Shown here piece after piece: positions 10,875-44,244 of a DNA stretch of 64,000 bases. This stretch comes from Alphaproteobacteria bacterium. Lineage in GTDB: Bacteria; Pseudomonadota; Alphaproteobacteria; UBA828. The stretch lies in contig CBDEUT010000009.1 in the NCBI GenBank assembly GCA_965243375.1, positions 896,401-960,400 of the forward strand. Direction: 5' to 3'. The translations under genes were made by a program, and so were the position numbers. Within the stretch, counting starts at the first letter, position 1, and the number at the start of each line of letters is the position of its first letter. The notes beneath the pieces are model-generated. The model ran no database searches and was not told where the DNA came from. It was given only the letters and a program-made list of their open reading frames with translations.

Positions 10875-12353
10875 ATGCCCCAGCAAGTCTATCGGATTCG
10901 CAGCGCCAAACATCTTATTGGCGAATATCATGAATTCCAAAAACAGGAAATCTACTTCGCCAAACCGGACGAACTCAACGATCCTATGGAAGGGCTTCGG
11001 AACATAGTTTGGAGAGGCGATGCGATCATGTGGGAAAACTTCTTTCGACACTACATATCGTGCCTGAATCACACTGTAGTCTTGGTCAAAGTGCTTGGAA
11101 ATAACACTATCGTACAAGCAGAACAAATCCCAATTTGCGGACTGGCAGACGAACATGAAACCCCAATGACGGCTGCAATTCTTGAGGAACTATGTTCCAG
11201 TGTTTTCGATAAATGCAAGCTCCACGCGTTGATACAAGATTTGGCAAATACGAATCACGCGGTCAGACGTGATGAACTGCTTGTCTACCTCAAACACATT
11301 CACTACATCACACTCGGAGAAATACAAAACATCCATATACGTCACAGCATGGCTTCAGGAGAAGCTCGACCCACTCCTCTTCAAGACCCGTTGGAGCTGC
11401 TTCAAGACCCGTTTGAGCTGCCCGAAAACATTCCCACATTGATTCAACGGCTCTATGAAGAGCAACCGGAAATCGCTCGGCCAGCATTGGCTGCTCTATT
11501 TTCTGTTTCGAATCTATTGTTCGATAACATGAATCTGATGCACAAGTACAGCAGTTCTCGACAGAACGATGGAAGCGAAACCCGCGCAAAGCAAAACCGC
11601 GAGTTCATTGTGCTCGATTTTCCGAGAAAATACCTTACTCGACTACCACGTATTCTATATCCTGATTGGTATGTCTCCTGCTTTCTTGAGGACTGTCGAA
11701 ATTCTTCCATATGGGGGCACTATGGAGATAATCATAAGGGGGCCTGTTTGATTTTCGATGCAAATGAAGACTCCGGACAGCTTGGACTGGAATTGAGGCG
11801 CATTACTGGTTTTTCTGGTCATCGTGACAAAAGCTTCGGCGAGATGACAACGAGATCGACATGGAATTACTCTTTGATGACGCTTTATAGTGTAGAATAT
11901 GAGGAAGAGTTGAGGGAGCTAGATTTTTTTCGTTCTATAGGTGTACTTCCCACAGGTCGACTTCTGTCCAAATGGTACACCGACCACGCGGGTAACCGCA
12001 GTATCTGCAGCGACCACATCGGGTCCGGTAACGAGGACTCGTGGCGTGAAGCGTATTGGGAGAAGTTCCATCAAGACATAGTCATAAAATCGCACGACTG
12101 GTCCTATGAGAAGGAAATGCGAATGATCCTAAGCAGTTCGATCTCGGACTTTACGGCAAAGACGTCGCGCAAGCTGACCTATCGATTTTCAAGCTTGAGA
12201 GGAGTTATTTTCGGGATCAGTATGACAGACAATGATAAGATGAAAATTATTGATATCGTGTTTGAAAAATGTCGCAACGAGAACAGGAATGATTTGAATT
12301 TTTTCAGGCATATTACAACCACGAGACGAAAGCTATCGAGAGGCATAGGTTGA
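10875..12353 (+). CDS. DUF2971-like protein (candidate standalone defence/Abi-type gene) in an AT-rich islet
   Basis: 492 aa; N-terminal motif VYRIRSAKHLIGEYHEFQKQEIYFAKPDELNDPMEG resembles the DUF2971 signature (LYKYRS...FS.P..FNDPFE) recalled from memory; gene and flanks (about 10640-12360) visibly much lower GC than surroundings. Confidence 0.65.
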   Translation: MPQQVYRIRSAKHLIGEYHEFQKQEIYFAKPDELNDPMEGLRNIVWRGDAIMWENFFRHYISCLNHTVVLVKVLGNNTIVQAEQIPICGLADEHETPMTAAILEELCSSVFDKCKLHALIQDLANTNHAVRRDELLVYLKHIHYITLGEIQNIHIRHSMASGEARPTPLQDPLELLQDPFELPENIPTLIQRLYEEQPEIARPALAALFSVSNLLFDNMNLMHKYSSSRQNDGSETRAKQNREFIVLDFPRKYLTRLPRILYPDWYVSCFLEDCRNSSIWGHYGDNHKGACLIFDANEDSGQLGLELRRITGFSGHRDKSFGEMTTRSTWNYSLMTLYSVEYEEELRELDFFRSIGVLPTGRLLSKWYTDHAGNRSICSDHIGSGNEDSWREAYWEKFHQDIVIKSHDWSYEKEMRMILSSSISDFTAKTSRKLTYRFSSLRGVIFGISMTDNDKMKIIDIVFEKCRNENRNDLNFFRHITTTRRKLSRGIG

Positions 12354-15505: not shown

Positions 15506-18100
15506 ATGGCGATGCGCGACGAGGATTTCGGGGCGATCCCGACGCTGACCGAGGCGGACGGCGGGCTCTGGTCGCCGCCCATGGCGACGCCGGAGCCGCG
15601 CGACTGGCGGTCTCTGTACGAGCAGGCGCAGGCGCGAGCGGAGACGGAGCGGGCTCGGGCGGACGCAGCGGAAGCGCGCGTCGCAGAGTTGCTTGTGGCG
15701 GAGAGGACTGCCCGTTCCCGAGCGGGCCAACTGAACACACAACTCGACAAGAACCGGAACAAGCTCAAGGCGGCCAACGAGGAGGTGAAGGAGGTCCGGC
15801 GCGCGGCCAAGGACGCGCTGTTCCACCAGTCGGAAGCAGCGCGGCTGGAGAAGCTGCTTTCGGAATCCGGTGTCGATACGCGCAAGCGCAGCACGATCGT
15901 GTCGCTGCGCATGGAAGTCTTCGAACTTCGCGAAGCCTTGAAGACGCCGAAGCCCGGCGACGCCGCGATCGAGGAACTGCGCGGGGAAGTCGATACCCTG
16001 ACCCGGGAGAACGCCCGGCTGAACAAGGCGCTGGAGCGGTCGCAGGGGCAGAACGACGAGATCGCGGCGCTGCGCAGGAAGGTCGAGGCGCTCCGTCGCC
16101 GGTTGAAACGAGCGGCAAAGCCTTCGCCGGCTGGCAGAGCGAGCGCCCAGCTTCGCAAGGCGCTGGAACGCGCACGCAAGCAGAAGGACACGATCAGGGC
16201 GTTGCGCGGCGAAGTCGGCACGCTCAGCCGGGAGACCCGTCGGCTGAACCGGGAGGCCCGTCGGCTGCGCCGCCAGTTGGAACCGTTGCCGGACCTCAAG
16301 AAGACTGCCCGCAAGATGACCGCCGAGGTCGGTTTTTTGCGCCAGTGTCTGGCCGCCTTCTGCGACCAGAGGGACCGCATCCAGGTGCTGGAGAACCGCA
16401 TCTTCCATCTGAACGTGGCCGTGAGGACGGCGGCCATCAAGAACGAGAAGCTGGAGGCCGAGCTTGCCGAGCGTCCCCTGCTGTCCGCGATCTTCAAGGT
16501 AGTGCGCGCTCGGAACAGGACTATCGAATCGCTGCACGAGGAGATCGCCCGGCAGCGCAAGGCGAACGGCCGGCAGGACAAGAAGATCGCCCGGCTGCGC
16601 GAGACGAACGCTGCACTGGGCAAGAAGATAAAGGCGCTTCGGGCTCTGACCGCGAGCCTGGAAGGCCGGATCGTCCAACTCCGCTCGTCCAGGGCGGTCC
16701 TGTCGAAGGCCGTCTTCGGGGGCAAGAGCGAGAAGCAGGACAAGCCGCGCTCGGAGCGCAAGCGCGGCCAGCAGCGCGGCGCGCCCGGCCACGGCCGCAC
16801 CCCGCGGCCCGCGCTCAAGGAGAAGGAGGAACGGCGGGAGCCGCCGCCGGACGCGCTGATCTGCTCGTGCTGCGGCAAGCCCTATATCGCCAACGGCGAG
16901 AATGCCTCGTCGGTCATCGAGATCGCGGTCAAGGCCCATATCCGCAGGATCGTGCGCCCGCGCTACCGCCGGAGCTGCGAGTGCGCGTCCTCGGCGCTGG
17001 AGGCGATCGCGCCCCCGCCGGCTCGGCTGTTCCCCAGGACGCCCTACGGGGTCAGCGTCTGGGCGCGCATCCTCTACGAGCGCTTCGCCTGCCACAGGCC
17101 CCTGCGCCGGGTTGCGGCATGGATGGCGGACCAGGGACTGCCGATCGCGCCGGGGACGATGGCGAGCAGCGTGCGCCGCTTCCTGCCGCTGTTCGCGCCG
17201 CTCGCCGAGGCGATCCTCGCCCACCAGAACGGGATGGCGGTGCGCCACGGAGACGAGACCGGCTGGCGCATCCAGGCGCTGGGCGAGACCGGCGGTTCGC
17301 GGCGCGCGTGGTTGTGGATCTCGGTCGGCAAGGATGCCGTCTATTACCGCATCGACCCCTCGCGCAGCGCCGAGGCCGCGATGAAGCTGTTCGGTTCGGT
17401 CAAGGGCACGGTGTTCCTGGTCTGCGACCGCTACGTCGCCTACGTGAAGATGGCGCGCGAGCTCGACGGCAAGGTGATCCTGTGCTGGTGCTGGATCCAC
17501 CAGAGGCGCGACTTCATCGAGTGCGCCGCCGGCCAGGTGAAGCTGAGGCAATGGTGCGAGGGATGGATCGAGCGGTTCGCGTCGGTCTTCCGACTGAACA
17601 AGGAGCGGCTGAAGCATTACGATCCCGCTCTCGCTCTCGAACGCCAGTCACCGGCGTTCGACGCGGCACATGCCCCGCTGAAGAAGGCCGTCGAGGATCT
17701 GTTCGTACAGGGCAAAGCGGAGCTGGCCGGGCTGCCGGACAAGGCGCGCCAGGGCAAGGCGCTGCGCTCGCTGCTCAAGCATCGCGAGGGGCTGAGCGTC
17801 TTCGTCGACAATCCCCAGGTCCCCATGGACAACAACCTCCCGGAGCGCGAGTTCCGGAAGGCCGTTATCGGGCGCCGGTTATGCTTCGGTTCGGACAGCG
17901 AGGACGGCGCCGACCTCACGTCGACGATGTACTCGGTCTTCGGCACGCTCTCGATGAACGGCATCGTCGTCCTGCGCTGGCTGGAGGCGTGGCTCGAAGC
18001 CTGCGCGGAGAACGGTGGCCAGCCACCGGACGACCTGTCGCCGTGGCTGCCCTGGACGATGACCGAGGAGCGCAGGCGCGAGTTCATGACGCCGGAATGA
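15506..18100 (+). CDS. IS66-family transposase (single-ORF type) with about 430-aa N-terminal coiled coil
   Basis: 864 aa; long heptad-like repeats (LRGEVDTLTRENARLNKALER... / LRGEVGTLSRETRRLNREARRL...); CSCCGKP...RRSCECA zinc finger; GDETGWRI catalytic region alignable to DETTVPV of the IS66 TnpC at 4701-6329. Confidence 0.8.
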   Translation: MAMRDEDFGAIPTLTEADGGLWSPPMATPEPRDWRSLYEQAQARAETERARADAAEARVAELLVAERTARSRAGQLNTQLDKNRNKLKAANEEVKEVRRAAKDALFHQSEAARLEKLLSESGVDTRKRSTIVSLRMEVFELREALKTPKPGDAAIEELRGEVDTLTRENARLNKALERSQGQNDEIAALRRKVEALRRRLKRAAKPSPAGRASAQLRKALERARKQKDTIRALRGEVGTLSRETRRLNREARRLRRQLEPLPDLKKTARKMTAEVGFLRQCLAAFCDQRDRIQVLENRIFHLNVAVRTAAIKNEKLEAELAERPLLSAIFKVVRARNRTIESLHEEIARQRKANGRQDKKIARLRETNAALGKKIKALRALTASLEGRIVQLRSSRAVLSKAVFGGKSEKQDKPRSERKRGQQRGAPGHGRTPRPALKEKEERREPPPDALICSCCGKPYIANGENASSVIEIAVKAHIRRIVRPRYRRSCECASSALEAIAPPPARLFPRTPYGVSVWARILYERFACHRPLRRVAAWMADQGLPIAPGTMASSVRRFLPLFAPLAEAILAHQNGMAVRHGDETGWRIQALGETGGSRRAWLWISVGKDAVYYRIDPSRSAEAAMKLFGSVKGTVFLVCDRYVAYVKMARELDGKVILCWCWIHQRRDFIECAAGQVKLRQWCEGWIERFASVFRLNKERLKHYDPALALERQSPAFDAAHAPLKKAVEDLFVQGKAELAGLPDKARQGKALRSLLKHREGLSVFVDNPQVPMDNNLPEREFRKAVIGRRLCFGSDSEDGADLTSTMYSVFGTLSMNGIVVLRWLEAWLEACAENGGQPPDDLSPWLPWTMTEERRREFMTPE

Positions 18101-22440: not shown

Positions 22441-22500
22441 TACCCGTTACCGTTACCCTGCCTCCCTAGGGGTTCGAGGCGGTAACGGTTTTCGGTAACG
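22441..22500 (+). repeat. inverted CGTTACC/GGTAACG repeat cluster between convergent genes
   Basis: CCGTTACCGTTACC...GGTAACGGTTTTCGGTAACG; could be a bidirectional terminator or protein-binding site. Confidence 0.3.
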
Positions 22501-23491
22501 CGTCGTTGCGGCCCGCGTGGTTGACGGCGGCCGGCGGCGCCGCGTTTTCGGCGGCGAGGCGGTAACCGCCCTGGGGTGCGCGTTCGACGCGCCCGGCGCG
22601 GACGAGCTTGCTCAGCGCTTCGGCGACGGTTGCGGGCCGGGTTGCCGCGCGCTCGCGGATCTGGCGCTGCGAGAGCGGTGCATCGGCGTCGGCGAGGGCT
22701 TGGAGGATGCGCCGTTCGGGTGTTTCCGGCTCCGGCGCGGCCTCGGCCGGCACCGGCCGCCGCAAGCGCAGGGCGGGTCCCTCGCCGTCATCGGCGAGTT
22801 CGATCTCGATGTCGGCGAGGCCTGGAGCGGCGCGATGCTCGACGGTCATGACGATCTGCTTGTCGCGGCGGCGCAGATAGAGGTTGCTGTCGCCCCAGGC
22901 ATGGAGCTCGGACGACCCCCTGAGCGCCTGGCCCGGCCGGCTGGCACCGCTCTTGCGGGCATGGTGGACGAGCAGGACGGCGGTCTCGAAGCGGCGCTGG
23001 AGGTCGCGCAGGAAGCCGAGTATGGGAGCGACCTCGGCGACGGTGTTTTCATCGACGCCGTGCAGGCGGACCAGGGGGTCGAGGACCACGAGGCGTGGCG
23101 CGATGCGCTGCACGGTCTCGCGCAGACGCTGCCGGTCGTTGGCATGGTCGAGGCGCAGGATGGGAGCGTCGATGACGGCGATGTCGAGCGTCTCGAAGCT
23201 GGCGCCGGCTGCCCGGGCGATGCCCTCAAGCCGGGCGCGCACGATGTGGCCGGCGTCCTCGGCCGCGAACAGCAGGACCGGTCCGGGCTGTTTGGCGGCG
23301 AAGCGGCGCAGACAGGGAACGCCGGCGGCGACGGCCACGGCGAGGTCCAGAGCCAGGAAGGATTTGCCGCACTTGGGTTCGCCGCCGACGATGCCGACGG
23401 CTTGGCGTCCCCAGAGGCCGTCGACCAGCCACTGCTGCCGGCTCGGGCGGTCCTCAAGGTCGGCCGGGCTTCGGGTCGGGAAGCCCTTCAC
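22466..23491 (-). CDS. RepA-like AAA/RecA-fold ATPase (AAA_25-type)
   Basis: 341 aa; Walker A GGEPKCGKS, LVVLDPL Walker B, C-terminal wHTH; common in ICE/plasmid backbones. Confidence 0.75.
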   Translation of the reverse strand: MKGFPTRSPADLEDRPSRQQWLVDGLWGRQAVGIVGGEPKCGKSFLALDLAVAVAAGVPCLRRFAAKQPGPVLLFAAEDAGHIVRARLEGIARAAGASFETLDIAVIDAPILRLDHANDRQRLRETVQRIAPRLVVLDPLVRLHGVDENTVAEVAPILGFLRDLQRRFETAVLLVHHARKSGASRPGQALRGSSELHAWGDSNLYLRRRDKQIVMTVEHRAAPGLADIEIELADDGEGPALRLRRPVPAEAAPEPETPERRILQALADADAPLSQRQIRERAATRPATVAEALSKLVRAGRVERAPQGGYRLAAENAAPPAAVNHAGRNDALPKTVTASNP

Positions 23492-24321
23492 CGGCGCGCT
23501 CTCCTGGTCTTGGTGGGCTCCCCCCAGGTCTCCAGGAAGAGCTTTTCGTCGAGCACTTCACGATCCTGATCGGCGCCGGCGGCGAGCAGCGCATCGGCCA
23601 TGACGGTGAGCGTCCTGGGGTTGCCGCCGGCATGGGCGACGAGGGTGTCCTTGAGGCCGGCGGTCATCAGGGCGGGGTTGCCGGCCTCCTCCAGCAGGTG
23701 GTCGAGGAGGCGCAGTAGATCCTCGTCTTCGGGACGCGTCATGAGGAGGCGCTGGCGGATGCGGGAGTCGATGGGATGCAGCTCCGGCGTGCGCAGTTTT
23801 GCGAGCAGCCGGTTGTCACCGGCCAGCACCACGCCAAGGATGGTGCGCGAGTCGAAGTCGGTCGAGGAGAGCAGGCGCATCTCGGTCAGCACCGCGTTGG
23901 GCAGCTCCTGTGCCTCGTCGACCAGCAGGAGTGGGCGCATGCGCGTGTCGTCGAGGTGGTCGAGCCAGCGCTGCCGCAGTCCCTTGATCCCATTCCAGCG
24001 ATTGTTGTGGGCCATGGTGATGGCGAAGCGGTCGGAGATCTCGTGGTAGAAGTCGGCGACGCTGGAGGACGGATGGGTGAGGACCGCGACGCTCAACCTG
24101 TCGATGCGCTCAAGGCGCTCGGCGAGCAACCGCAGCGCCACGCTCTTGCCGATGCCGGGCGGGCCGCCGATCAGGGCGAAGCCGCCCTGGCGCACCAGAT
24201 GCCGTTCGACCCTGCGGCAGAAGTTCTCGACGGCGGGTGTGGTCATCAGGCCATCGACCGGGAGGTCGGTGGAGAAGGGGTTCCACTTGAGGCCGTACAG
24301 CGTGAGCATTTCGCGGTTCAT
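23488..24321 (-). CDS. tniB: TniB/ExeA-like transposition AAA+ ATPase
   Basis: 277 aa from MNREMLTLYGLKWNPF (ExeA/TniB N-terminal signature), Walker A GGPPGIGKS, Walker B LLLVDEAQ; RBS GGGGAGACC; ATGA overlap with the upstream tniA stop. Confidence 0.8.
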   Translation of the reverse strand: MNREMLTLYGLKWNPFSTDLPVDGLMTTPAVENFCRRVERHLVRQGGFALIGGPPGIGKSVALRLLAERLERIDRLSVAVLTHPSSSVADFYHEISDRFAITMAHNNRWNGIKGLRQRWLDHLDDTRMRPLLLVDEAQELPNAVLTEMRLLSSTDFDSRTILGVVLAGDNRLLAKLRTPELHPIDSRIRQRLLMTRPEDEDLLRLLDHLLEEAGNPALMTAGLKDTLVAHAGGNPRTLTVMADALLAAGADQDREVLDEKLFLETWGEPTKTRRARR

Positions 24322-25796
24322 GAGGGGTCTCCCCGATCGTCGTCTTCGCCCGGCCCGGGGCTTTCGGCGTGAGGCAGCCAGGCCGGCGGCAGGCCCGTCG
24401 CGGCCTGGTCGTCGAGGATGCGCCTGAGCAGCGGCGCGGCTTCGCCCCCGCCGGCGCTGCCGCCGCCATCGTTGTCGCCGGGCCCGGCCGGGCGGCGCAT
24501 ACCGCCGGCATTGCCGCGCCGGTCGAGCGGGTAGAGGGTGCACAGCCGCTCGCCGCTTCGGCCGTCGACCAGATCAACGCTGGCCAGGTCCCAGCGCGCA
24601 TAGCGGATCCACAGCGTGCTCAGGTGGCGCCACGGCGCGGGAACCTGATAGCGGATGCCCTCGAGCGACACGGTTCCGTCCGAGCGCCGCAGCGTGCGCT
24701 TCACGGTGATGCGGAACGCCGCCCTGAGCTCGTCGCGGCCGAGGCAGGGCCTCGACGCATCGTCGCTGTCGAGCAGGCGCTTGAGCGGCGTGGTGCCGAG
24801 CTCGCGGTGCACCCGGCGGTGGTAGTCCTGCTCGACCCAGGCGACGGTCGCGTCGTTGAGCGTCTTCAGGGTGAGCGGCTCGACGCCTTCGAGCATGGCC
24901 ATCAGGCGGCCCTCGACCGAGGCCCACAGGACCTCCATCTTGCCATTCTGATGAGGCGCCCCCGCGAGGGTCCTGGAGTGGATGATGCCGAGCCGGTGCA
25001 GCCCCTCCTCGACCTCCCCCGCCATCATCGGCGAGCCGTTGTCGCTCATGAGCGCGCGCGGCAGGCCGCGCTTCATGAAGGCCTGGCAGAGCCCGTGGAC
25101 GAAGACCTCGGCGGTCTCCTCCAGGTACCACTGCAGGTGGCAACCCACCCGCGAGTGGTCGTCGAGGAAGCCGAGCATGATCGGCGTGCGCCAGGCGCCG
25201 GACGCGGTCAGCACCCGGCACCGGGCATGATGGAAGTCGGTGTGCCAGAGCGCATGGCTGCGCGAGACCTCGAAGCTCAGCACCTCGCGCGGCTCGACCG
25301 GCGCCCGCTCGGGTTCCCGGTCGAAGCGCCGCCGGCGGCGCTGGCGCACCAACCCGCGATTGCGCATTGCCCGGGTCAGCGTCGCGTAGGAGGGCATCGG
25401 GCCGAGCGCCGGATCGACCTCGACCAGCGCCCGCAGGTTGTCGTAATGCAGCTGCCCCGACCACGACGGATGCGCCCGGTACTGGCCGCGCAGCGCCTCG
25501 ATCAGCGCCGGCGACATCGCCCGCTCGCGGCCGGCATCGGTGCGCGGCCGGCGGCGCAGCGCCTTGACCGGATCCCGGTCCGCCGCCCGTGCCTGGTAGT
25601 ACCAGCGTTCGATCGTCGACACCGAGAAGCGCACCGGCCCCTTGCCGGACGGGTGATCCCAGTCGCGTTGCGACAGCCGCTCCAGCTCCGCCCGCAACTG
25701 CCCCGTGGGCGGCGGCGAGGCCAGCAACGGCCCGACGACCGCGAAGCGCAGCCGCGCCCACCGGTCGCGGTCGCCCCCTCCGTTGTTGCTGTCCAT
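24318..25796 (-). CDS. tniA: TniA-like DDE transposase (Mu/Tn552/Tn5053 retroviral-integrase superfamily)
   Basis: 492 aa; N-terminal RWARLRF HTH; rve core HTDFHH...SDNGS...E; Mu-transposase-like C-terminal domain. Confidence 0.8.
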   Translation of the reverse strand: MDSNNGGGDRDRWARLRFAVVGPLLASPPPTGQLRAELERLSQRDWDHPSGKGPVRFSVSTIERWYYQARAADRDPVKALRRRPRTDAGRERAMSPALIEALRGQYRAHPSWSGQLHYDNLRALVEVDPALGPMPSYATLTRAMRNRGLVRQRRRRRFDREPERAPVEPREVLSFEVSRSHALWHTDFHHARCRVLTASGAWRTPIMLGFLDDHSRVGCHLQWYLEETAEVFVHGLCQAFMKRGLPRALMSDNGSPMMAGEVEEGLHRLGIIHSRTLAGAPHQNGKMEVLWASVEGRLMAMLEGVEPLTLKTLNDATVAWVEQDYHRRVHRELGTTPLKRLLDSDDASRPCLGRDELRAAFRITVKRTLRRSDGTVSLEGIRYQVPAPWRHLSTLWIRYARWDLASVDLVDGRSGERLCTLYPLDRRGNAGGMRRPAGPGDNDGGGSAGGGEAAPLLRRILDDQAATGLPPAWLPHAESPGPGEDDDRGDPS

Positions 25797-26957: not shown

Positions 26958-27618
26958 CACCGAAGCGTGCGCTTCGGCTCCAATCCCGTCCGGCGTATCG
27001 GCATTCAAGAAAAGGGTTGGGCGCGTCGCTTCGCGACCGGGCTACCCTGTCGAGCCCGCTGCGCGGTCTCGCCCCTTCGGGCGGGTATCCCTCGCGCCTC
27101 CGGTCGCTGCGCTCCCTCCGCGCTTCGCTTGGCAAGGAGGGCGGTGCGTGTGGAGAGAGGGCTACTCCTCCCGAGGTGTGCCCATTGTTCCACACGTGCT
27201 CGCGACAGCAACCCTGCGGGTCCTCCGGTCGCTCCGCTCCCTGCGGCCTGGCCCAAAAACCTCTAGGGCGGGCCGTGAAAGTCGCCGACCGTGAAGTTGG
27301 GCTTGCGCGAACTCTCCCACCGCCTCGCGTGTGGCGCGCCGGACCCGCGAGCGGGCCCGGCGCATCGGCCCGGCGCTCCCAGCCCTTGAGCAGGCCAACT
27401 CGAAAAGCGGCCAGCCACCGCGACCCCGCGCCGGGCCTCCCTAAGCCGCACGACGCCCAACTTCCGCACCACTCGGCGACTTTCCGCACCAACCCCGCCC
27501 AAGAGGTTCTAGGGCCAGGTGCTGTCCCTGCGCGCGCGTGAACCAACAGGCACACGTCGGGAGACGAACGCCCCGGCGGTTCCGGGCCAGACGGCTCACG
27601 CAAACAAGGAGACAGTCA

Positions 27619-28541
27619 TGTACGACATCGACAGCATCGACACGCCGAACGAGTCAGCGACCGCAGCGATCTGCGAGCAGGCGCAGCTCTTCGGCGCGAC
27701 GCCCGAGCGCGGCGAGTTCGACACCCGCGACGTCTGGGACGAGGACGACGCCACCAGCGCGCTGAGCGAAGCGTTCCGCATCGTCGCCGAGGGCGTCGCA
27801 CCGGACGGCTTCCAGCTCGCCGATGAGCGCGAGAGCCTGCTGTGGGGCTTCGTCAACTGCCTCGACGCCCAGGTGCGGCGCCTCGACCGCAGCGTCGACC
27901 GGCTGAGCCCGGAGCTGCGCGACCTCCAGCGCGAGCAGGACGGCACCGAGATCAAGTCACGCGAGCTGGAGCTGGTGACGCAGCGGGCGCAGAACCTCGG
28001 CGACCGGCGCGACGCCTTCGAGACCATGCGCGACGCGGCGGCGGAGCAGTACCGCGCCGCCACCGGCGAGACCTGGCGCCCGCGCTACGGCAGCCACACC
28101 AGCCAGACCGGCAAGCTGACCTCTGCTGCCATCGACGCGCGCGACTTCATGCGGGCGAGGAAGGACCGCGAGACGCGCGCGCACCTGCCCGAGGGAACGC
28201 TGATCGCCGTCGCGGGCGGCAAGGACGTCCGCGACCCCGCCGCCGTCATCGCGAAGCTGGACAAGGCGAAGGCGAAGTACGCCGACATCATCCTCGCCCA
28301 TGGCGGCGGCCCCGGCGTCGAGCGCATCGCGGCGCGCTGGGCCGAGCGCAACGGCGTCCACCAAGTGGTCTGCAAGCCCGACTGGAACAAGCACAAGCGG
28401 GCCGCCCCGTTCCGGCGCAACGAGGAGCTGCTGAACCTGCTGCCGAAGGGCCTCATCGCCTTCCCCGGCAACGGCATCACCGACAACCTCGTGGACCGCG
28501 CACGGCAGCTCGGCATCCCGGTCCAGCGCTGCGACGCATAG
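27619..28541 (+). CDS. DUF2493 (SLOG/DprA-like Rossmann) domain protein with N-terminal coiled-coil extension
   Basis: C-terminal LIAVAGGKDVRDPAAVIAKLD...ADIILAHGGGPGVERIAARWAERNGVHQVVCKPDW...LIAFPGNGITDNLVDRARQLGIPV matches DUF2493 as recalled; start at the ATG at 27619 (the ORF track begins at 27519). Confidence 0.65.
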
Positions 28542-29097
28542 TCCGCAGCGCATCGCGGGCCGCGTCGTCTCCGGACGGCGCGGTCCGTTTCTTTTTGGTC
28601 GGACCTCACGGCAACGCCACAGCGTCCTCCTCGCGCCGCCGCTTCGCGCGGCGCTCGTCGCGGTCCTCGCCGCACTCGCCCTGGCCGGCTGCGCCGGCTG
28701 CGGGCATCGCCCCGGCTCGTGCCCGGCGCACTTCGTGCCTCGCCGGTGCCGGCTTCGCCGCGCACCGTGCTCCGCACTGCGCCGTGCAGTGGTGCCCTCA
28801 CGAGTGCGGACAGCACCGCCAACGCCTCCGGCAGCGTGCTGCCCACCACTGCCCGCGGCTCCGGCCGCACCGTCCGCCACTCAATCGCCGTGGTGGCTCC
28901 GATCCACCGGCTTCACCGACGTCGATTTCCCGAACATTGATGCTACCGATTCGGCCGTTCCGGACCGCCCGGGGCGGCTGTTTTTCCACACCCCACGCAG
29001 CGGGCTGCAAAAGGGCGCATGCGCGCGCGGAGCGTGCCGTTTGCGTGCCTTTTCGGCGCCTTTGGGAGACTTTCGGCGTCCGCTTCTTGTTGGAGCG

Positions 29098-29240
29098 AGT
29101 CGCTTCTCTGGAGAACCGCCGTCAACCGTCTGGAATCGCGTGCTTTTTCAGAACGCGGTTCTCTGGAGAACCGCCCGGATCGCCCCGAACTTCTCCAGAG
29201 AACCGCCGATTCAGGCCCACGCTTCTCTGGAGAACCGCCC
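29098..29240 (+). repeat. four 17-bp iterons TTCTCTGGAGAACCGCC (third copy TTCTCCAGAGAACCGCC), candidate oriT/operator
   Basis: Copies at about 29101, 29160, 29190 and 29223; core TTCTC-YR-GAGAA is itself a palindrome; in a 745-bp gene-free gap just downstream of the RHH gene and traA. Confidence 0.6.
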
Positions 29241-29287
29241 GAAACGGCGGCGCATCGCCCGTTTCGGCCGACCCGGAAGACGGCCGA

Positions 29288-29740
29288 TTAGCCCGAGGTC
29301 GCCTTATCGGTGGCCACGGGGACGGTCTTCGCTTGACGGTCTTCCCCGTTCGGACCGCCGCCGATCAGCTCGTCCTGGACCCCTCGCGCGCCGGCGATCA
29401 GCGCGTCCAGCTCCTCTTCGCGGCCTTCGTCGAGCATGTCGTAGAGCAGTTTCGACACCAGGATGTGGGCGGCGCGGAAGGTCAGCTCGATCAGGGGGGC
29501 CAGCCGGTCCGCCGCCGCGCCCGCCGGCGGGCCGTCCGCCACCGCCGCCAGCGCGGCGAAGCGGACGAACTCAGGGCCGGTCAGGCCGCGTTGTTCGGCG
29601 GCGGCCTCGACCCGCTCCCACTCCGGATCGTGGAACCGGATCGAATGCGGGTTGCGTTTCTCCGTCCTGCCGGCCTCGGCCGGGGCGGTTTCGGGCTGTT
29701 TTCCGTCCATTCCGTTCCTTCCGCGCTTCCCGTTTCCCAC
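29288..29740 (-). CDS. ribbon-helix-helix (MobC/CopG-like) DNA-binding protein, putative relaxosome accessory factor
   Basis: 150 aa; HSIRFHDPEWERVEAAAEQRGLTGPEFVRFAALAAV fits a beta-strand + two-helix RHH; starts 31 nt downstream of the traA stop. Confidence 0.5.
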   Translation of the reverse strand: MGNGKRGRNGMDGKQPETAPAEAGRTEKRNPHSIRFHDPEWERVEAAAEQRGLTGPEFVRFAALAAVADGPPAGAAADRLAPLIELTFRAAHILVSKLLYDMLDEGREEELDALIAGARGVQDELIGGGPNGEDRQAKTVPVATDKATSG

Positions 29741-29770
29741 CTTCGCCGGAGGATCCGGCGGCCCGGCGCG

Positions 29771-32700
29771 CTACAGTCCGAGGTCCATGCCGCCCCTGCC
29801 GCGCCCGCGCGCGGGCGGTTCCGGCGCCTTCCCGGGCGCCTTGGCAGGGGATTTCGCGGGCGTCTCCGCCCCCTCCCGGCCCTTGCCGGGGTCCCGTTCG
29901 GCTCCGCGGTCCGGGCGCAGCGCACGGTCTTGGCCGTACTCGGCCGCCTTTTCCGGTGTCCCTCGCCGCATCTCGCCGATGCCTTCGAGCGCCGCGATGC
30001 GCTCGCCGGTGACGGCTTCGAGCTGCGCCTTCAGCTCGTCGGCGTTGTCGGTGACCAGCTCGGCCCGGTCGCGCGCCCGGCTGATCTCGACGTAGAAGCT
30101 CTTCTGCGTGGTGAGGTGCGGGTGCCTGGCCTCCATCGCGGCGATCACGTTGTCCACCGTACGGCCCTGGAAGGCGTACACGGTGGACGCCCAGGCATGG
30201 TCGAGATGGCGAAGCTGCGGGTCGCTCTTGCCCAGCTCCAGCGTCTTCCCGTCCTCCAGGCGGAACGTCACCCGGCCGTTGGCGACCTTGAGCACTTCCG
30301 CCGTGCGGCTGTTGACCAGCCCGAGACCGGCGTCGTTGCGCGTCCAGCGGATGCGGTCGCCGGCCCTGAGTCCGATTTCTTCCGCGCGGTAGACCTCGCT
30401 GCCGCCCTTGCGCCCGCCGATCTCCTGTGGCTTCCAGGCGACCGAGCCGCCCTTTCCGTCGCAGCACCGCGCGGGCCTTGTAATCGACTCCCATGACGCG
30501 CCGCTCGTCGCCCTTCTCGACGCCGATCCGCTTGTAGGGGCGGTGGAAGGCGACCACGTCGCCCGGTCCGTAGTTGCCGGCGAGCGTCTTCTCGGCATTG
30601 GTGTAGCCCATCGAGACCAGCCGTTCGGACGCCATCGCCGCCCCGTGGATGCGGCCCTCACGGGCCAGGCGCTCGCGGATGTGGCCGTTGATCGCCTGGC
30701 GCAGCTCGTGCGAGGGCGCCATCACGCCGGTGTTCTGCCGCGCTTCTTCGTCCAGCCTGAGCCAGCGGGCCGCGACCGCGCCGGCGATATTGTCGGGCTT
30801 CACCTCGGCGACGTTGCTCCCGAGCTTCTCGAAGGCGCGCTCGATGTCGCCCTTGAGGCTGGCTTCCACCGCTTCCTTCAGCACCGCGTCGCGCTGGCGC
30901 ATGATCTCGTCCATCGTCGCGGTCCGCATGCCGGCGGCCTGGAGCTGGGCGAAGGGCTTCCCGGCATCCACTGCATCCAACTGCTTCGCGTCGCCCACCA
31001 GCACCAGGCGGGGGATGCGGAGTTCGTTCGCGATCCTGAGGAGGTCCCGCGCCTGCACGGTGGAGGCGAGCGAGCCCTCGTCCACCACCAGGATCGTCTT
31101 CGCGAAGGCCGCGCGCATCTCCCGCGCGCCCTTGCGCGTGAGCCGTCCCTCCGCCACGCCGGCGTTGCGGGCGAGGAAGCGCTGGAGGGTTTCGGACTCG
31201 ATCCCGGCCTCGGAGGCGAGCGTCCGGACCGCCGACGCGGACGGCGCGAGCCCCGCCATGCGCCAGCCCTTCTTCTCCGCGAGCGCCCGCGCGCGGCTCA
31301 GCATCGTGGTCTTTCCGGTGCCGGCGTAGCCCTGCACGCCCACCGTGCGATCCTTCGCCGACAGGATCAGCTTCACCGCGTCCTTCTGCCCGGCCGTGAG
31401 CGGCCCCTTGTTGAGGTGCCCCTGGACCTGCCAGCCGCGCATCGGCGCCCGGCCGCGGCCCCGGCCGCCGCGCCACAGCGCCACCGCCTCGCGCTCCTCG
31501 CCGACGGTGCGGTCGGTGGCGAGCGAGTCCTCGGCGCCGGGGATGTTCACCGCATGCAGGGTCCCGGCCTTCTCCAGCGCCGCGACCTCGCGTTCGACCT
31601 CCCCGATCGACGCGGCGCCGGGCGCATGGGCGAGCGCGGCGGCCAGGAGATCGGTGCGGGCGAACACCGCCTCGCGCTCCGAGAGGTGCGCCATCCCCCA
31701 GGCCACCGCCTCCGCGGCGGGCGACGACGGCGCGGCTTCCACCGCCCCTTCGCGCGCCGGCGCGTGTGCCCCGGACCCTGCCGCCGCCAGCTCCACGGAC
31801 CCTGAGTCCATGCCGGCTGCGCCCGCCTCTCGTGCATCCCCGATCTCCGGCAGCGCTGTCGCCACTGGTATCCGTGCCTCGCCTGCCTCCGCGGTCGGTT
31901 CCGCCGCCGCTTCCAGACCCGGCGAAGCCGAGCGTTCGACGGCGCCGGCGACCAGCGCACCGGTATCGAGGCCGAGATCGGCCGTCTGCTTCCGCCAGAC
32001 GCCGCGCAGCTCATCGCGGTCGATGTCGCGCTTGACGGCGCGGGTCATCAGCGCCGCTCGCTCCGCCAGGCGAGGATTGTCCGCTGAGCTGCCCAGATCG
32101 CGCGCCGCCATCGCCGCCTCGATCTCCGCCCGCCGCGTCGAGAAGGCCTCGATCGCCGCGCGCGGCACGCCGGCGATCTCGAAACGGCCGTCGGCATGGG
32201 TCTTCTCGATGCCGTAGCCGAGCTTCGAGAGGCCGGCCGCGAGCTCGCTCCGGTAGAGCATCCCGATCAGCTTCTGGCGCGCATAGAGGCCCTCGTTGGC
32301 CATGGTCCGCCACTTGCCGTCGTTGCCCTGCACCATGTTGGCGAGCACGGCGTGGGTGTGGAGCTGCGGATCCAGGTTGCGCGAGGTGTCGTGCCGGAAG
32401 GTGGCGGCGACCATCTTCTGGTTGCCGACCCGCACCATCCTGCCCGTGTCCGGGTCCTTCATGCGGGTCTCGGCCGCGTTCTTCTCCACCCAGGTCAGCG
32501 TCGCGGCGACGGCGCGGTCGTGGGCGTCCACGATGCGCGCATCGCCGCCGACCAGCGCGGCGAGGGAAACGGATTTCGGGGCGGAGAAAGTGAGGTCGCG
32601 GCCGGGGCGGTGCACGATCTCCCCGTCCTTGACGCGCTTGCCGAGCCGCCGCCCCGAGCCGTCCGGCACGCGGCCTTCGAGGACCTGCCGGAACGTATCG

Positions 32701-32906
32701 GCGTCGACCGGTCCCGTCAGCCCGAGCTCTTCGGCGCCCCTGCCGGCCCAGGCGCTGGCCTCGCGGTGCTCGGGATCGTCCTTCGCGTAGTAGCCGTCGC
32801 GCTCGTAGTAGCTCGCTCCCTGGGGCCGGGAGGCGGGCGAAGGAGACAGGGCCGGGCGGAGAGTCCCTTTCCCCGTGCCGGCGGTATGATCGGAGGCCAT
32901 GACCAT
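29771..32906 (-). pseudogene. traA: MOBF-type conjugative relaxase-helicase TraA/TrwC-like, frameshifted near 30430-30480
   Basis: N-terminal relaxase (YYERDGYYAKDD, HTHAVLANM), central AAA_30 helicase (GYAGTGKTT); coding continues in another frame (ORF 29771-30661: ...RIRWTRNDAGLGLVNSRTAEVL...AFQGRTVDNVIA...); the first about 100 codons of the 1,211-aa ORF look non-coding. Confidence 0.8.
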
Positions 32907-40382: not shown

Positions 40383-41004
40383 CCGCGGCGACCGGCTTGC
40401 CCCGCTCGTCCTCCGATCCGGCCAGCGCCCGGAAGCGGGCGAACCAGGCCTCGGCCGCCTTGTCCGGCGGCATCGGGCGGATGCGCCGCTTCAGCGGCGG
40501 GAAGCCGATCCCGGCGCCGGCGGGATCATTCCCGTCCAGCAGGTCGCGGCTCTCGGCGGCAGCCGCCATGCGGGTCACGAACCGCAGCAGTTCGGCGTGT
40601 TCTTCCTCGAGCACTGCTCCCAGGCCCGCGGCCTCGCGCACCGCCGCCTCGATCCCGGAGGCGAGGCGGCCCGTCCTTTCCATCGCACGCTGCGAACCCG
40701 GAGCCGCGCCCCGGAGCCAGGCCGACGGCGCGTCCGCAACCAGCGCATGGAGCGCAAGCGTTCGCCGGTCTTCGTCCGCGAGCCCGTCGAGCGCCTCGAT
40801 CTCTTCCGACACCATGACCGCATGGGCCGCAACCGAGTGGTAGCCGCGCATGCAGCCGCCCCGGCGGCAGGTGTTGGCCAGCACATGGGCCAGCGCCTCG
40901 AAGTCGATATCGGCGGCGGTGATGTTCTCCGGGTCGCCCGGCCAGTTGAGCGGGCGCTCCGCACGCGCGCTTCGCCGGCGCGCACCGCGAGTTCTTGCCG
41001 TCAT
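40366..41004 (-). CDS. HD-domain phosphohydrolase-like protein
   Basis: 212 aa; GYHSVAAHAVMVSEEI resembles the H...HD motif region of YfbR-type HD hydrolases; weak. Confidence 0.4.
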   Translation of the reverse strand: MTARTRGARRRSARAERPLNWPGDPENITAADIDFEALAHVLANTCRRGGCMRGYHSVAAHAVMVSEEIEALDGLADEDRRTLALHALVADAPSAWLRGAAPGSQRAMERTGRLASGIEAAVREAAGLGAVLEEEHAELLRFVTRMAAAAESRDLLDGNDPAGAGIGFPPLKRRIRPMPPDKAAEAWFARFRALAGSEDERGKPVAADAGQG

Positions 41005-42362
41005 GGCGCTTCTTCCGTTTCAGTTGTTTCGGGATGTGCGGCGGCAGCGGGGGCGGTTTCCCCGGCAAGCCGGTCGATGGCCTCGACCGTCGTGAGCCCC
41101 TGCGCCTTCAGGGTCTCGACCGCCGCGAAGGCGGGGCCGCGCGAGGAGAACAGCGCGACCGACCAGGCGTCGAGCACCAGCCGCGCGACCCGCCAGCCGT
41201 CCGGGCCGTGCAGCACGATCTCCGCGTAGCGGCCGTCCGCGGTGGTCAGGCTCTTGAGCGCGCGCTCCATGCCGGGATCGCAGTGGATGCGCTTCTCCTG
41301 CTTCAGGAGCTCGACCGACTCGTCCTTCTGGGCGAGGAAGATCGTCCAGTCCGAGTTCTCCCAGGCCGCGCGCGCCGCCGGGTTGGCGTAGTAGTCGTTT
41401 ACGCTCTGAGTCCCGGTGACGAGAGCCCCGCGGTACTTGCGCGCCCGGCGCGCGGCGCCTTCGAGAAACGCCTTCGAGTCCTCGCCCGAAAGCAGGTCCC
41501 ACGCCTCGTCGATGACGATCGCCTTCGCCCGCGTGCGCGGGCCGTGATACATGCGCTGGGTGGCGAGGAAGACCACCAGCATCAGCACCACCGCCTGGAC
41601 GTCGCCCCGGCCCTTGAGCTCGGCGAGCTCGAACACGGTGAGCGCGTTCTCCAGGTCCGGGACGTTGTTGCCGGCAAAGAGGCGCCCCATCGCGCCGCCC
41701 GGACACCACGGCCCGAGAGAGGTCGCCATGTCGGCCGCGCGCCGGTCGTCGCGGGCTTCGAGGTTCTTGCGCACCGTGCCGAGATCGGCGTCGTTGCCGG
41801 CCTCGTCCCAGGGCGCTGCAATGGCCTCGGCGATGTGCGCCGCCTCGATGTCGTCGATCGAGCCCCGGCGCCGTGCCATCCGCCCGATGACGCCGGCCAG
41901 CATGGCGAAGCACTCCTCGCGGTAGTCGCCGTCGTGATTGGCGGTGCCTGAGTCGATCATGGCGAAGGGGTTGAGGCAGGCCGGGTCCTTGCCGAAGGCG
42001 ATGAACGCGCCTTCGAGGGCTTCGGCGGTGTGCTGGAAAGACCGCCCGTCGTCGATCACCACGGCCTCGCCGCCGGCGCCGATCAGCCCGGTCACCAGCT
42101 CCTGCATCAGCACCGACTTGCCGGAGCCCGACTTGCCGGTGACGGCGACGTTGTAGTTGCCCGCCTCGTTGGCGAAGGGGGACCAGCAGGCGGGCTGGCC
42201 GCGGCGCCCGATCAGGAAGAGAGCGGGCGGGTTGTCGGGATTGGCCGGCTGGCCGCGCCACTCGCCGTGCAGCGGCGCGAGGTTGACCGCGCTCGATGTC
42301 AGCAGGGTCTTCATCCGGCCCATGCGTTCGAGATCGGCGTCCAGCCCGCCGGCGGACGCCAT
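41001..42362 (-). CDS. traC: TraC/VirB4-like T4SS ATPase, C-terminal ATPase half only
   Basis: 453 aa; Walker A VTGKSGSGKS at about residue 75 (in full-length F TraC it lies near residue 480), Walker B AIVIDEAWDLL; the N-terminal about 400 aa are not encoded upstream. Confidence 0.75.
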   Translation of the reverse strand: MASAGGLDADLERMGRMKTLLTSSAVNLAPLHGEWRGQPANPDNPPALFLIGRRGQPACWSPFANEAGNYNVAVTGKSGSGKSVLMQELVTGLIGAGGEAVVIDDGRSFQHTAEALEGAFIAFGKDPACLNPFAMIDSGTANHDGDYREECFAMLAGVIGRMARRRGSIDDIEAAHIAEAIAAPWDEAGNDADLGTVRKNLEARDDRRAADMATSLGPWCPGGAMGRLFAGNNVPDLENALTVFELAELKGRGDVQAVVLMLVVFLATQRMYHGPRTRAKAIVIDEAWDLLSGEDSKAFLEGAARRARKYRGALVTGTQSVNDYYANPAARAAWENSDWTIFLAQKDESVELLKQEKRIHCDPGMERALKSLTTADGRYAEIVLHGPDGWRVARLVLDAWSVALFSSRGPAFAAVETLKAQGLTTVEAIDRLAGETAPAAAAHPETTETEEAP

Positions 42363-42657: not shown

Positions 42658-44244
42658 TTAGGCGGCCAGGGCCTGGTGCTGGGCTGTCTTCCAGTTCCAG
42701 GGCAGGAGCTGGTGCAGGTCGCTTTGCGGCAGATCGGCAATCTGTCCGAGAACATCGGCGAGCCAGGCCTGGGGATCGACATCGTTGAGCTTGGCGGTGC
42801 CGATGAGGGTGTACATCGCCGCCGCCCGCACTCCGCCGCGATCGGAGCCGCAGAACAGCCAGGATTTTCGTCCCAAAGCGATGACCCGAAGCGCCCTCTC
42901 GACAGCGTTGTTCGTGAGGCAGATCTGGCCGTCATCGAGGAAACGGGTGAAGCCGTCCCAGCGTCTGAGCATGTAATCCATCGCCTTGGCGACAGAGGCG
43001 TGGCGCGACAGCCTGGCACGCTCCGTGCGCATCCAGTCCTCGAGATCGGCGACGAGCGGCGCGCTCGCCTCCCGGCGCACGGCAAGGCGCTGATCGGCAC
43101 TCTTGCCGTTGATCTCGCGTTCGATGTCGAACAGCGCGTCGGTCCGCTTCACCGCCTCCATCGCCAGCGGCGAGATCGGCGGCGCCTGCTCGCCGCGCCT
43201 CTTGCTCGCCGCGATATCGGCAAGCTCGTAGAACTTCCTCCGACTGTGAGCCCAGCACAGGGCCTCGATCACGGCTCCCGGCGAGCGGCCCGGCACATAG
43301 AGCCGGTTGAAGCCAGCATAGGCATCGGCTTGAAGCACCCCGGCAAAGGTCTTCAGGTGCTCGACCGGGTGATTGCCCGAACGGTCGCGGGAGTATCGGA
43401 ACAGCACGGCCGGCGGATCCGGACCGCCGAACGGCCTGTCGTCACGCACATAGGCCCAAGCCCGCCCGGTGACGGTCTTGCCCTTGGCCAGCACCGGGAC
43501 GGGAGTGTCGTCGCCGTGCAAGCGCCGGGCCGCAAGCACGTGATCGGCGATCAGGTCATGCAGCGGTTTCAGCGCCACGGCGCAGGCCCCGACCTGATCG
43601 GCCAGCGTCGACAGGCTCAGGTCGACCCCCTCGCGCGCGTAGCGCTCGCGCTGCCGGTTCAACGGCTGGTGCTGGCCATATTTCTCGAACACGATCGTCG
43701 CCAGAAGGTTCGGACCCGCCCAACCTCGCGGCACCGCGTGGAACGGCGCCGGCGGCTGCGAGACCTTCTCGCAATCGCGGCAGGTGAACTTCTCGCGGAT
43801 CGTCTGGATCACCTTCCACCGGCGCGGGATCACCTCAAGCGTCTCGGTCACGTCCTCGCCGATCTTCGACAGCCGCTCCGACCCGCAGCACGCGCACGAT
43901 GTCGGTGCAGGAACCACCACCCGCTCGCGCGGCAGATGCTCGGGGAAGGGCTTGCGCGACGGCTTGCGGCGCGTGAACCCCTTGACCTGGGTGGTCTCGG
44001 CCGCGGCTTGCTCGGCCGCGAGATCGTCCTCCGTCGCGTCCGCCGTCAGCTCGTCGAGCGCAAGCTCCAGTTGGTTGAGGAGACGCACCGTGCGCTCCGA
44101 GCGCTGCCCGTAGAGCGCACGGCGCAGCTTCTCGACCATCAGCTTCAGCGAGGTGATCTGCTCCTCGGCCGCCGTTGCCCGAGCCTCCGAGGCCGCAAGC
44201 GCCGCCTCGAGAGTTTCAACGTCGCGTCGGGCCGTGACCGTCAT
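42658..44244 (-). CDS. tnpC: IS66-family transposase TnpC (copy 2)
   Basis: 528 aa; leucine zipper, CACCGSERLSKIGEDVTETLEVIPRRWKVIQTIREKFTCRDCE zinc finger, DDTPVPVL core. Confidence 0.9.
   Translation of the reverse strand: MTVTARRDVETLEAALAASEARATAAEEQITSLKLMVEKLRRALYGQRSERTVRLLNQLELALDELTADATEDDLAAEQAAAETTQVKGFTRRKPSRKPFPEHLPRERVVVPAPTSCACCGSERLSKIGEDVTETLEVIPRRWKVIQTIREKFTCRDCEKVSQPPAPFHAVPRGWAGPNLLATIVFEKYGQHQPLNRQRERYAREGVDLSLSTLADQVGACAVALKPLHDLIADHVLAARRLHGDDTPVPVLAKGKTVTGRAWAYVRDDRPFGGPDPPAVLFRYSRDRSGNHPVEHLKTFAGVLQADAYAGFNRLYVPGRSPGAVIEALCWAHSRRKFYELADIAASKRRGEQAPPISPLAMEAVKRTDALFDIEREINGKSADQRLAVRREASAPLVADLEDWMRTERARLSRHASVAKAMDYMLRRWDGFTRFLDDGQICLTNNAVERALRVIALGRKSWLFCGSDRGGVRAAAMYTLIGTAKLNDVDPQAWLADVLGQIADLPQSDLHQLLPWNWKTAQHQALAA

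Follow-up and report, generated by a model that had tools for sequence, protein, structure and literature searches.

A probable origin of transfer with an array of dyad sites in an integrated conjugative element of an alphaproteobacterial chromosome

Genes and repeats around the gene-free gap

We analysed a 64,000-nucleotide stretch of contig CBDEUT010000009.1 from an Alphaproteobacteria bacterium (the window in what follows), in which a decayed set of conjugation genes ends at a gap at 28542-29287. A gene with a YAcAr/SLOG domain on the plus strand (27519-28541) ends directly before the gap, and a 150-codon open reading frame (ORF) on the minus strand ends at 29288 on its other side, and hence the flanking genes converge on the gap. 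None of the ORFs in the gap has the GC1 > GC2 << GC3 pattern typical of genes in this 68% G+C DNA. A preliminary description, made from the letters of the DNA, had called the gap gene-free, and its bounds and the lack of coding-like ORFs inside were borne out. Our analysis suggests that the segment 28950-29290 is quite probably the origin of transfer (oriT) of an integrated conjugative element with an F-type mating apparatus and a MOBF relaxase, and that four repeats in it are very probably protein-docking sites.

The relaxase gene (29771-32834, minus strand) is decayed and encodes a MOBF relaxase-helicase of the TrwC/TraI type, as indicated by the domain matches and the comparison with intact relatives. 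The ORF 33206-29571 matches the TrwC domain (E = 3.4e-87), the NCBIfam model NF041492 MobF (E = 1.3e-88) and also AAA_30. Compared with the intact relatives, the first ~7 codons are gone and the frame changes near 30414-30466. Since the conserved end of the relaxase, DLGL followed by the stop TAG, lies at 29771-29773, the long ORF reaching 29571 is a frameshift artefact. The repeats do lie beside this gene and a small gene following it, as previously reported, but the relaxase is of the TrwC/TraI-type MOBF family and not of the Ti TraA type.

The small gene (29288-29710, minus strand) encodes a protein of 140 amino acids (aa), which is probably a NikA-like ribbon-helix-helix (RHH) protein judging from sub-threshold profile matches and a structure model. 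The relaxase gene directly precedes it both here and in the related loci L001 and L004 (with an 82-bp gap in L004). Its usual stop has been lost, as the TAG of the relatives reads CAA here (29288-29335 region), adding 15 residues. The annotated protein P0049 (84 aa) is the C-terminal piece of the same protein, started from an internal GTG, and hence the source annotation seems to omit the DNA-binding half.

The genes farther along the minus strand are those of an F-type mating apparatus, namely TraG_N, TraH, TraF, TraN, TraU and a TraC fragment. The gene of the TrwB/TraD-type coupling protein, located between the TraG_N and relaxase genes in relatives, is cleanly deleted with the junction near 32824-32827, and a tblastn search for the coupling protein gave no match anywhere in the window. 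The oriT of this copy agrees with the family consensus; if functional, it could at best work in trans with an intact sibling element, since the coupling protein is lost and the relaxase is broken.

The four repeats are dyads of the form TTCTC-YR-GAGAACCGCC that start at 29104, 29159, 29191 and 29223, with start-to-start spacings of 55, 32 and 32 bp. The sequence TTCTCTGGAGAACCGCC is found at 29104-29120, 29159-29175 and 29223-29239, and TTCTCCAGAGAACCGCC at 29191-29207, so that three copies alike and one with an inverted center lie where the preliminary description had put them. Site 1 (29104-29120, TTCTC-TG-GAGAACCGCC) is the one nearest to the predicted nick discussed below. Site 2 is a full palindrome, GCGGTTCTC-TG-GAGAACCGC(C), at 29155-29175, of which 29155-29174 form the complete 20-bp palindrome GCGGTTCTCTGGAGAACCGC; the remaining three copies have the long arm GAGAACCGCC on the same side. 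Site 3 (29191-29207) has the inverted central dinucleotide CA, and site 4 (29223-29239), the farthest from the nick, keeps a conserved distance to it and adjoins the 3' end of the RHH gene; the array begins 48 bp past that gene.

In the window no dyad match was found outside the array when up to 3 mismatches were allowed, and three further matches on the minus strand are the same dyads in reverse reading. The 7 matches observed compare with a mean of 0.54 in shuffled sequences, none of 100 shuffles getting to 7. Rfam gave sub-threshold matches to microRNA precursors at 29154-29207 on both strands, which we rejected as an artefact because dyads 2 and 3 together form a perfect 16-nt inverted repeat.

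The predicted nick site and the conserved module

On the minus strand, positions 29008-28986 read GCAGC-CC-GCTGC-GTGGGGTGT|GG, i.e. a hairpin and then the nick sequence of F/R1, within the longer stretch GCGCGCGCATGCGCC-CTTTT-GCAGC-CC-GCTGC-GTGGGGTGT-GGAAAAACA-GCCGCCCCGGGCGGTCCG (29028-28961). The predicted nick is between 28988 and 28987 of the minus strand. Its core, GTGGGGTGT|GG (28986-28996, minus strand), was assigned by its conservation and its identity to F/R1, with which it shares 13 nt, GCGTGGGGTGT|GG, when the preceding GC is counted. The 14-mer TGCGTGGGGTGTGG (minus strand, 28999-28986) has a single match in the window against 0.05 expected. The published oligonucleotides of the F/R1 oriT read GCAAAAACTTGTTTTTGCGTGGGGTGT|GGTGCTTTT, with the core followed by GGTGC, and include 27 nt with an inverted repeat 5' of the nick (Ilangovan et al., PMC5422253). 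The window therefore shares with F both GCGTGGGGTGT|GG and an inverted repeat that ends in GC just before the core.

The nick motif is on the strand that puts the relaxase gene, located 5' of the motif, last in transfer. The preliminary description had suggested searching for a nick-like sequence nearby, and this one lies 116 bp from the nearest repeat, counted from T28988, the base preceding the predicted nick, to T29104, the first base of site 1. Overall, the sequence-level features of an F-like MOBF oriT are found here: a MOBF relaxase gene alongside, a nick sequence of a proven MOBF type on the right strand, and an inverted repeat directly 5' of the core.

The hairpin GCAGC-CC-GCTGC (28997-29008, minus strand), which has its counterpart in the F/R1 inverted repeat at the same place, is also backed by compensating changes. 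We aligned 37 nick-region sequences, i.e. the window and 36 of the related loci L001-L055 (alignment A2), and the perfect 5-bp stem is present in 34 of them. The arms occur in four perfectly complementary variants (GCAGC/GCTGC, GCATC/GATGC, GCACC/GGTGC and ACAGC/GCTGT) while the loop sequence is free. R388 likewise has a hairpin 5' of its nick, and the covariation is as expected for recognition of a folded single strand. When the sequences are lined up at the nick, the information content is close to 2 bits at each position from -14 to +1 and falls sharply at +2, and positions -5 to +1 are invariant in the 37 sequences. A conserved GC-rich palindrome, GCGCGCGCATGCGCC (29014-29028), is located 5 nt 5' of the hairpin.

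The related loci, 56 in total, were gathered via the RHH protein, 4 from contig look-ups and 52 (L005-L056) from a genome scan, and all of the latter (52/52) encode an RHH protein. All the loci are chromosomal and in metagenome-assembled genomes, often several per genome. For example, CBDDOM010000002.1 has six element copies, and OY763326.1 has three loci, of which two are partial matches. The genomes are labelled Alphaproteobacteria, Thermodesulfobacteriota, Acidobacteriota, Binatia, Bryobacterales and Gammaproteobacteria, which points to a spread across phyla or to binning errors. A megablast search against plasmids gave only an irrelevant 57-bp match and hence no close plasmid relative. A metagenome scan for GGTTCTCNNGAGAACC returned, among the matches listed, mostly single dyads in contigs without the nick motif, which are probably chance matches, and one possible family member, L113. 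Our literature search found neither the dyad sequence nor the element family in any paper.

We found that a module of ~330 bp 5' of the nick is conserved downstream of the MOBF relaxase and RHH genes in about 35 of the related loci. Its components are 4-6 phased dyads, an A-tract with an IHF-like core, the GC palindrome, the hairpin and the nick core. The canonical nick motif occurs once, on the strand of the RHH gene and downstream of it, in 29 loci, and about 10 further loci have the variant cores GCGTCGGGTGT|G, GCGTCCGGTGT|G or GCGTTCCGGTGT|G. The dyads of the module, GGTTCTC-NN-GAGAACC, keep a fixed spacing, while the central NN is CA, TG, TC, CG or GA, a free variation as expected of a spacer left unread by a symmetric protein. 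In each module there is one gap of 55 bp; it holds an A-tract, and (A)TTCCAGnnnnTTG or TTCAAnnnnATAG comes 8 nt after it.

The distances between the dyads and the nick motif are also fixed. The exact sequence TTCTCnnGAGAA occurs 112 times in the 839 kb of sequence, 103 of them within 400 bp 5' of a nick motif, at distances of 127, 148, 182/203, 214/235, 246/267 and 299. A site at the distance of site 1 (127 nt from the nick motif by the measure of our script) is present in 18 loci, and site 2 is at the conserved position 182. The other 9 exact dyads belong to loci with variant nick motifs or with a module split by an insertion. The dyads are thus not a generic repeat scattered over the genomes, which the preliminary description had named as the finding that would speak against its proposal. 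The array stays with the nick region wherever cargo is inserted between it and the RHH gene. Such cargo genes are located at 6413-7030 in L001, 6439-7648 in L004 and 8400-9050 in L024; a 205-aa gene is common to L001 and L004, and L024 has a small CopG-like ORF.

Since the predicted nick is on the minus strand, the 5' end leads to lower coordinates, the YAcAr side would be the leading region and the relaxase gene would be transferred last. The YAcAr/SLOG-domain gene, the first gene of this leading region, is transcribed towards the oriT, with the transferred strand as its template. The leading sides of the relatives encode YAcAr, DUF4326, Toprim/DUF7146 and SSB genes on the strand opposite to the nicked one, which explains why the genes converge on the gap. 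In the same orientation, F has DUF932, hok, psiB, ParB-like, ssb and antirestriction genes 3' of its nick on the opposite strand. Samuel et al. (PMC11541004) report that the genes of leading regions are uniformly oriented.

Comparison among the loci provides another line of evidence for the nick position. Homology among the loci is lost precisely at the end of GTGTG. Comparing the 35 nt on the 5' side of the nick with the 30 nt on its 3' side, we found 35 locus pairs with an identity of 90% or more on the former and of 50% or less on the latter; the opposite holds for 6 pairs. The 3' side exists in a few alternative forms that are joined to different 5' sides, even within one genome (L013, L014, L015, L025 and L030). 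MOBF relaxases can join a strand begun at one oriT to another oriT, and this breakpoint pattern is what would be expected if strands begun at one oriT were joined at another. TrwC catalyses oriT-oriT recombination, which the breakpoints at the nick recall. The breakpoints support the nick position to within one base and suggest that the site is used in nature. We speculate, with some reservation, that the nick site might be a natural recombination joint, at which the multi-copy genomes swap leading regions exactly at GTGT|G, through transfer or relaxase-catalysed strand exchange begun at one oriT and finished at another. Orphan oriTs, like that of this decayed copy, might then still be usable in trans by intact siblings. 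If this is true, adjacent chromosomal DNA would be mobilised in an Hfr-like manner among uncultivated bacteria of several phyla.

Based on the sequence, its conservation, covariation and geometry, and on the analogy with the relaxosomes of F and R388, we infer how the DNA might be bound, bent, nicked and transferred. Dimers or tetramers of the auxiliary protein, whose N-terminal part is predicted to be an RHH domain and whose C-terminal part a helical oligomerisation domain, would bind the four GGTTCTC-NN-GAGAACC dyads. Sites 2-4 are 32 bp apart, about three helical turns, which would place them all on one side of the helix. Between sites 1 and 2, the A-tract and the IHF-like core lie in the 55-bp gap, and binding and bending might deliver the relaxase to the nick about 120 bp off, or activate it. 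The relaxase would then recognise the hairpin GCAGC-CC-GCTGC and the single-stranded core GTGGGGTGT|G and cut the minus strand between 28988 and 28987; in the oligonucleotide TTGCAGCCCGCTGCGTGGGGTGTGGAAAAAC the cleavage would be expected after GTGT. The minus strand would leave with its 5' end first, so that the recipient would receive the YAcAr side first and the transfer genes last.

The protein predicted to read the dyads and competing explanations

The small protein that follows the relaxase is a probable RHH protein, an assignment that comes from profile comparisons. Its ORF has no Pfam match at default settings, and its family comprises 246 homologues, typically of 125 aa, with no functional name among the 120 listed. 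We built a family profile from 36 members, for which the best solved structure is NikA of R64 (PDB 2ba3, E = 0.014). All 36 aligned members match the Pfam family PF21983 (NikA-like), with a best E of 6.6e-6, and the part matched by the profile is ...PHSIRF-DPEWERVEAAAEQRGLTGPEFVRFAAL. The structure model has helices at 29-40 and 45-58 after HSIRF, a predicted beta strand, and a confident C-terminal helical hairpin at 63-116. The RHH label given to this gene in the preliminary description is hence backed by sub-threshold profile matches only.

Comparison among the loci provides good, if limited, evidence for the RHH domain as the reader of the dyads. Where the protein has the PHSIRF strand, all 31 loci carry TTCTC..GAGAA sites and none of them TGCTC..GAGCA sites; the 31 include proteins just 42-55% identical to that of the window (in Gammaproteobacteria, Thermodesulfobacteriota and Binatia), where the rest of the oriT has diverged. 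The loci with a PRTIRF or PRSIRF strand carry TGCTC..GAGCA sites (7/7), which are of the form GCGATGCTCnnGAGCATCGC in class 2a and GTATGCTCnnGAGCATAC in L023/L024. The comparison of L024 with L020 is particularly informative. Between the two, the DNA of the RHH gene is about 97% identical in its 3' half, and the 110 bp beside the nick are about 95% identical. In contrast, the 5' half of the gene, i.e. the DNA-binding part, is roughly 60% identical by eye, and the arrays are unrelated (33-57% per 30-nt window) while the sites, A-tract and spacing keep the same architecture. As the DNA between and beside them stays 95-97% identical, two separate segments have been replaced together.

Several observations weigh against this interpretation, and some of them leave room for an alternative in which the oriT is real but the dyads are bound by a protein other than the adjacent RHH-like one. 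The window protein scores 16.2 bits against PF21983, for which the curated cut-off is 27. The AlphaFold monomer model has a pLDDT of 63.7, with low confidence and no strand in the N-terminal part, and a Foldseek search of the PDB with this monomer model found nothing, so that the sub-threshold RHH assignment has no structural support. RHH domains fold only as dimers. Comparing the family profile with F TraM and F TraY by hhalign gave a probability of 0.1% and an E of about 0.45. Two lineages, and not many independent events, underlie the covariation of RHH and dyad types, and the contig of P0116, a possible third lineage of the PRTIRF type, has no array within the 800 bp of sequence at hand. 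In class 2a both dyad types occur together, and at several PHSIRF loci the site closest to the nick is a hybrid, TTCTC..GAGCA; both observations blur a one-to-one code. The RHH gene is separated from the array by other genes in L001, L004 and L024, so their adjacency is not obligatory. Another element-encoded protein could thus bind the dyads, and the relaxase, the coupling protein, an unannotated 114-aa product encoded beside the coupling-protein gene in relatives, or a host factor may be proposed. We consider such a binder unlikely, given that between L024 and L020 only the N-terminal half of the RHH protein and the array are replaced, with 95-97% identity in the DNA between and beside them, and that the strand type tracks the dyad type in 31/31 and 7/7 loci. 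A dyad with an unconstrained central NN also suits a symmetric dimer, and RHH proteins make up most of the known relaxosome auxiliaries (PMC12857230).

Three more points weigh against an active F-like oriT at this locus. A copy without a coupling protein or an intact relaxase may be a fossil. The tra operon is transcribed towards the oriT here, while traM, traJ and traY of F are transcribed away from it. The IHF-like core of the window matches only 7/9 positions of the consensus.

The repeats could instead be a transcriptional operator for an RHH repressor with no role in transfer, as RHH proteins are often repressors and TrwA and TraY also regulate transfer genes. This explanation seems very improbable to us, because the array follows the operon's last gene on the 3' side and has a convergent gene opposite it, no coding-like ORF starts next to it, and a scan with the sigma-70 consensus only found 0 promoter-like sites in 28300-29800. 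Moreover, the distance of the array is fixed to the nick motif and not to any gene, and persists despite the cargo insertions. Of the candidate oriT or operator put forward in the preliminary description, we therefore retain the oriT, for which the nick motif, the conserved module and the covariation of repeats and RHH type argue, and find no support for the operator. Several repeats of 17-20 bp with helical spacing in a non-coding gap may also remind one of the iterons of a replication origin or of a partition centromere. The sites, however, are dyads, whereas iterons are asymmetric direct repeats, the flanking genes scanned gave no match to a Rep, ParA or ParB domain, and the elements are in chromosomes of 1-9 Mb with several copies per genome. 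With the array coupled to the nick motif of a relaxase as well, we give this explanation hardly any credit, even less than the operator.

Comparison with known systems and other features of the locus

The oriT proposed here is a known kind of feature, while the family of integrated conjugative elements is undescribed and annotated only as hypothetical proteins. Besides the nick region, the family shares with F a MOBF relaxase with a helicase part, the mating genes TraU, TraN, TraF, TraH and TraG_N, an array of predicted auxiliary sites on the 5' (last-transferred) side within about 300 bp, and leading-region genes on the opposite strand, with ssb included in the relatives. It differs from F in its predicted auxiliary protein, which has no detectable similarity to TraM/TraY and is encoded by the one auxiliary gene seen, the last of the operon and preceded by the relaxase gene. 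In addition, there are 4-6 regular dyads at 32/55/21-bp spacing here in place of sbyA and sbmA-C of F, and the elements are chromosomal, in uncultivated marine-type bacteria.

The gene layout is similar to that of R388, with a coupling protein, a MOBF relaxase and a small predicted auxiliary protein with a probable N-terminal RHH part and a C-terminal oligomerisation part. The nick core is nevertheless F-like and not R388-like, and the order here is coupling protein, relaxase, auxiliary gene and oriT, compared with oriT, trwA, trwB and trwC in R388. NikA of R64 is the best profile match and its strand-helix-helix part is covered, but the matches fall short of the curated cut-off. The relaxase that NikA partners is of the MOBP type, and NikA binds one repeat beside the nick, whereas the relaxase is MOBF here and the array is 120-250 bp off. 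The roles of TrwA, TraY, TraM, IHF and NikA in relaxosomes have been described, with most of the known auxiliary proteins being RHH proteins and NikA, itself one of these, binding an oriT repeat (PMC12857230).

If our prediction is right, it gives a base-precise oriT for this element family, i.e. the nick position, the hairpin and the auxiliary sites, and a probable role for an unannotated family of 246 homologues. The elements are common and multi-copy in the metagenome-assembled genomes of the labels listed, and the nick core of the F plasmid would be used far outside the enterobacterial plasmids. The two site types, GGTTCTC..GAGAACC versus GTATGCTC..GAGCATAC, with HS versus RS/RT in the beta strands, would represent a natural specificity swap for RHH-DNA recognition. 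For genome annotation it would mean that a transfer origin can lie in a gene-free gap with converging flanks behind a relaxase operon.

The preliminary description also held that no feature other than the array explains the gap, which needs qualifying, since inside it are also the nick region, an inverted repeat beyond the nick, a block that is conserved and structured, and a terminator of the YAcAr gene. Within the 55-bp gap between sites 1 and 2, the minus strand has an A-tract at 29148-29144 and, after 8 nt, TTCCAGACGGTTG at 29135-29123, an arrangement conserved in 25 loci. The IHF consensus is WATCARNNNNTTR, and the class 2a loci have TATCAGCGCCTTG, a full match to it, at the same position. 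We regard 29123-29148 as a candidate for a bend or for the binding of an IHF-type host factor. On the nicked strand, site 1 is followed immediately on its 3' side by a conserved block, GCGACTCnnTCMAACAAGAA (29084-29103, minus strand).

On the other side of the nick, an inverted repeat at 28952-28980, followed on the plus strand by TTTTT, resembles an intrinsic terminator; an inverted repeat is found at this place in nearly all loci, with varying sequence. The leading region starts with a conserved GC-rich structured block at 28700-28945 on the transferred (minus) strand. This block might possibly serve, in single-stranded form, as a promoter or for priming. One of its hairpins shows covariation, to a modest degree, and the folding of 28600-28990 as single-stranded DNA is unremarkable (z = -2.25 and -2.12 on the two strands). 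Blocks of this type recur 2-3 times in the leading regions of some relatives, e.g. at 1499-1831 and 4063-4253 in L021, at 8900-9220 and 10058-10189 in L033, and at 11707-11888 and 12326-12470 in L034. A terminator-like hairpin with a T-run (28555-28597, plus strand) follows the YAcAr-domain gene. A frame resembling a signal peptide (LALAGC) at 28640-28700 was rejected, as it has no start codon before 28735 and its composition is not coding-like.

The remainder of the window contains a number of insertions. The leading region is interrupted at 22466-25796 by a transposon-like block encoding an rve integrase, AAA_22 and AAA_25/HTH proteins, and the DNA flanking this block (from 27144 upward and from 22181 downward) is collinear with L005 and L007. 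To the left are two tyrosine integrases and a transposon. There are three transposase genes of the IS66 family (4701-6329, 15506-18100 and 42658-44244), one of them inside the F-type mating cluster beside a truncated TraC-like gene (41001-42362). Adjoining the transfer genes, an ORF of 1932 aa with five Calx-beta domains is located on the minus strand at 45919-51717.

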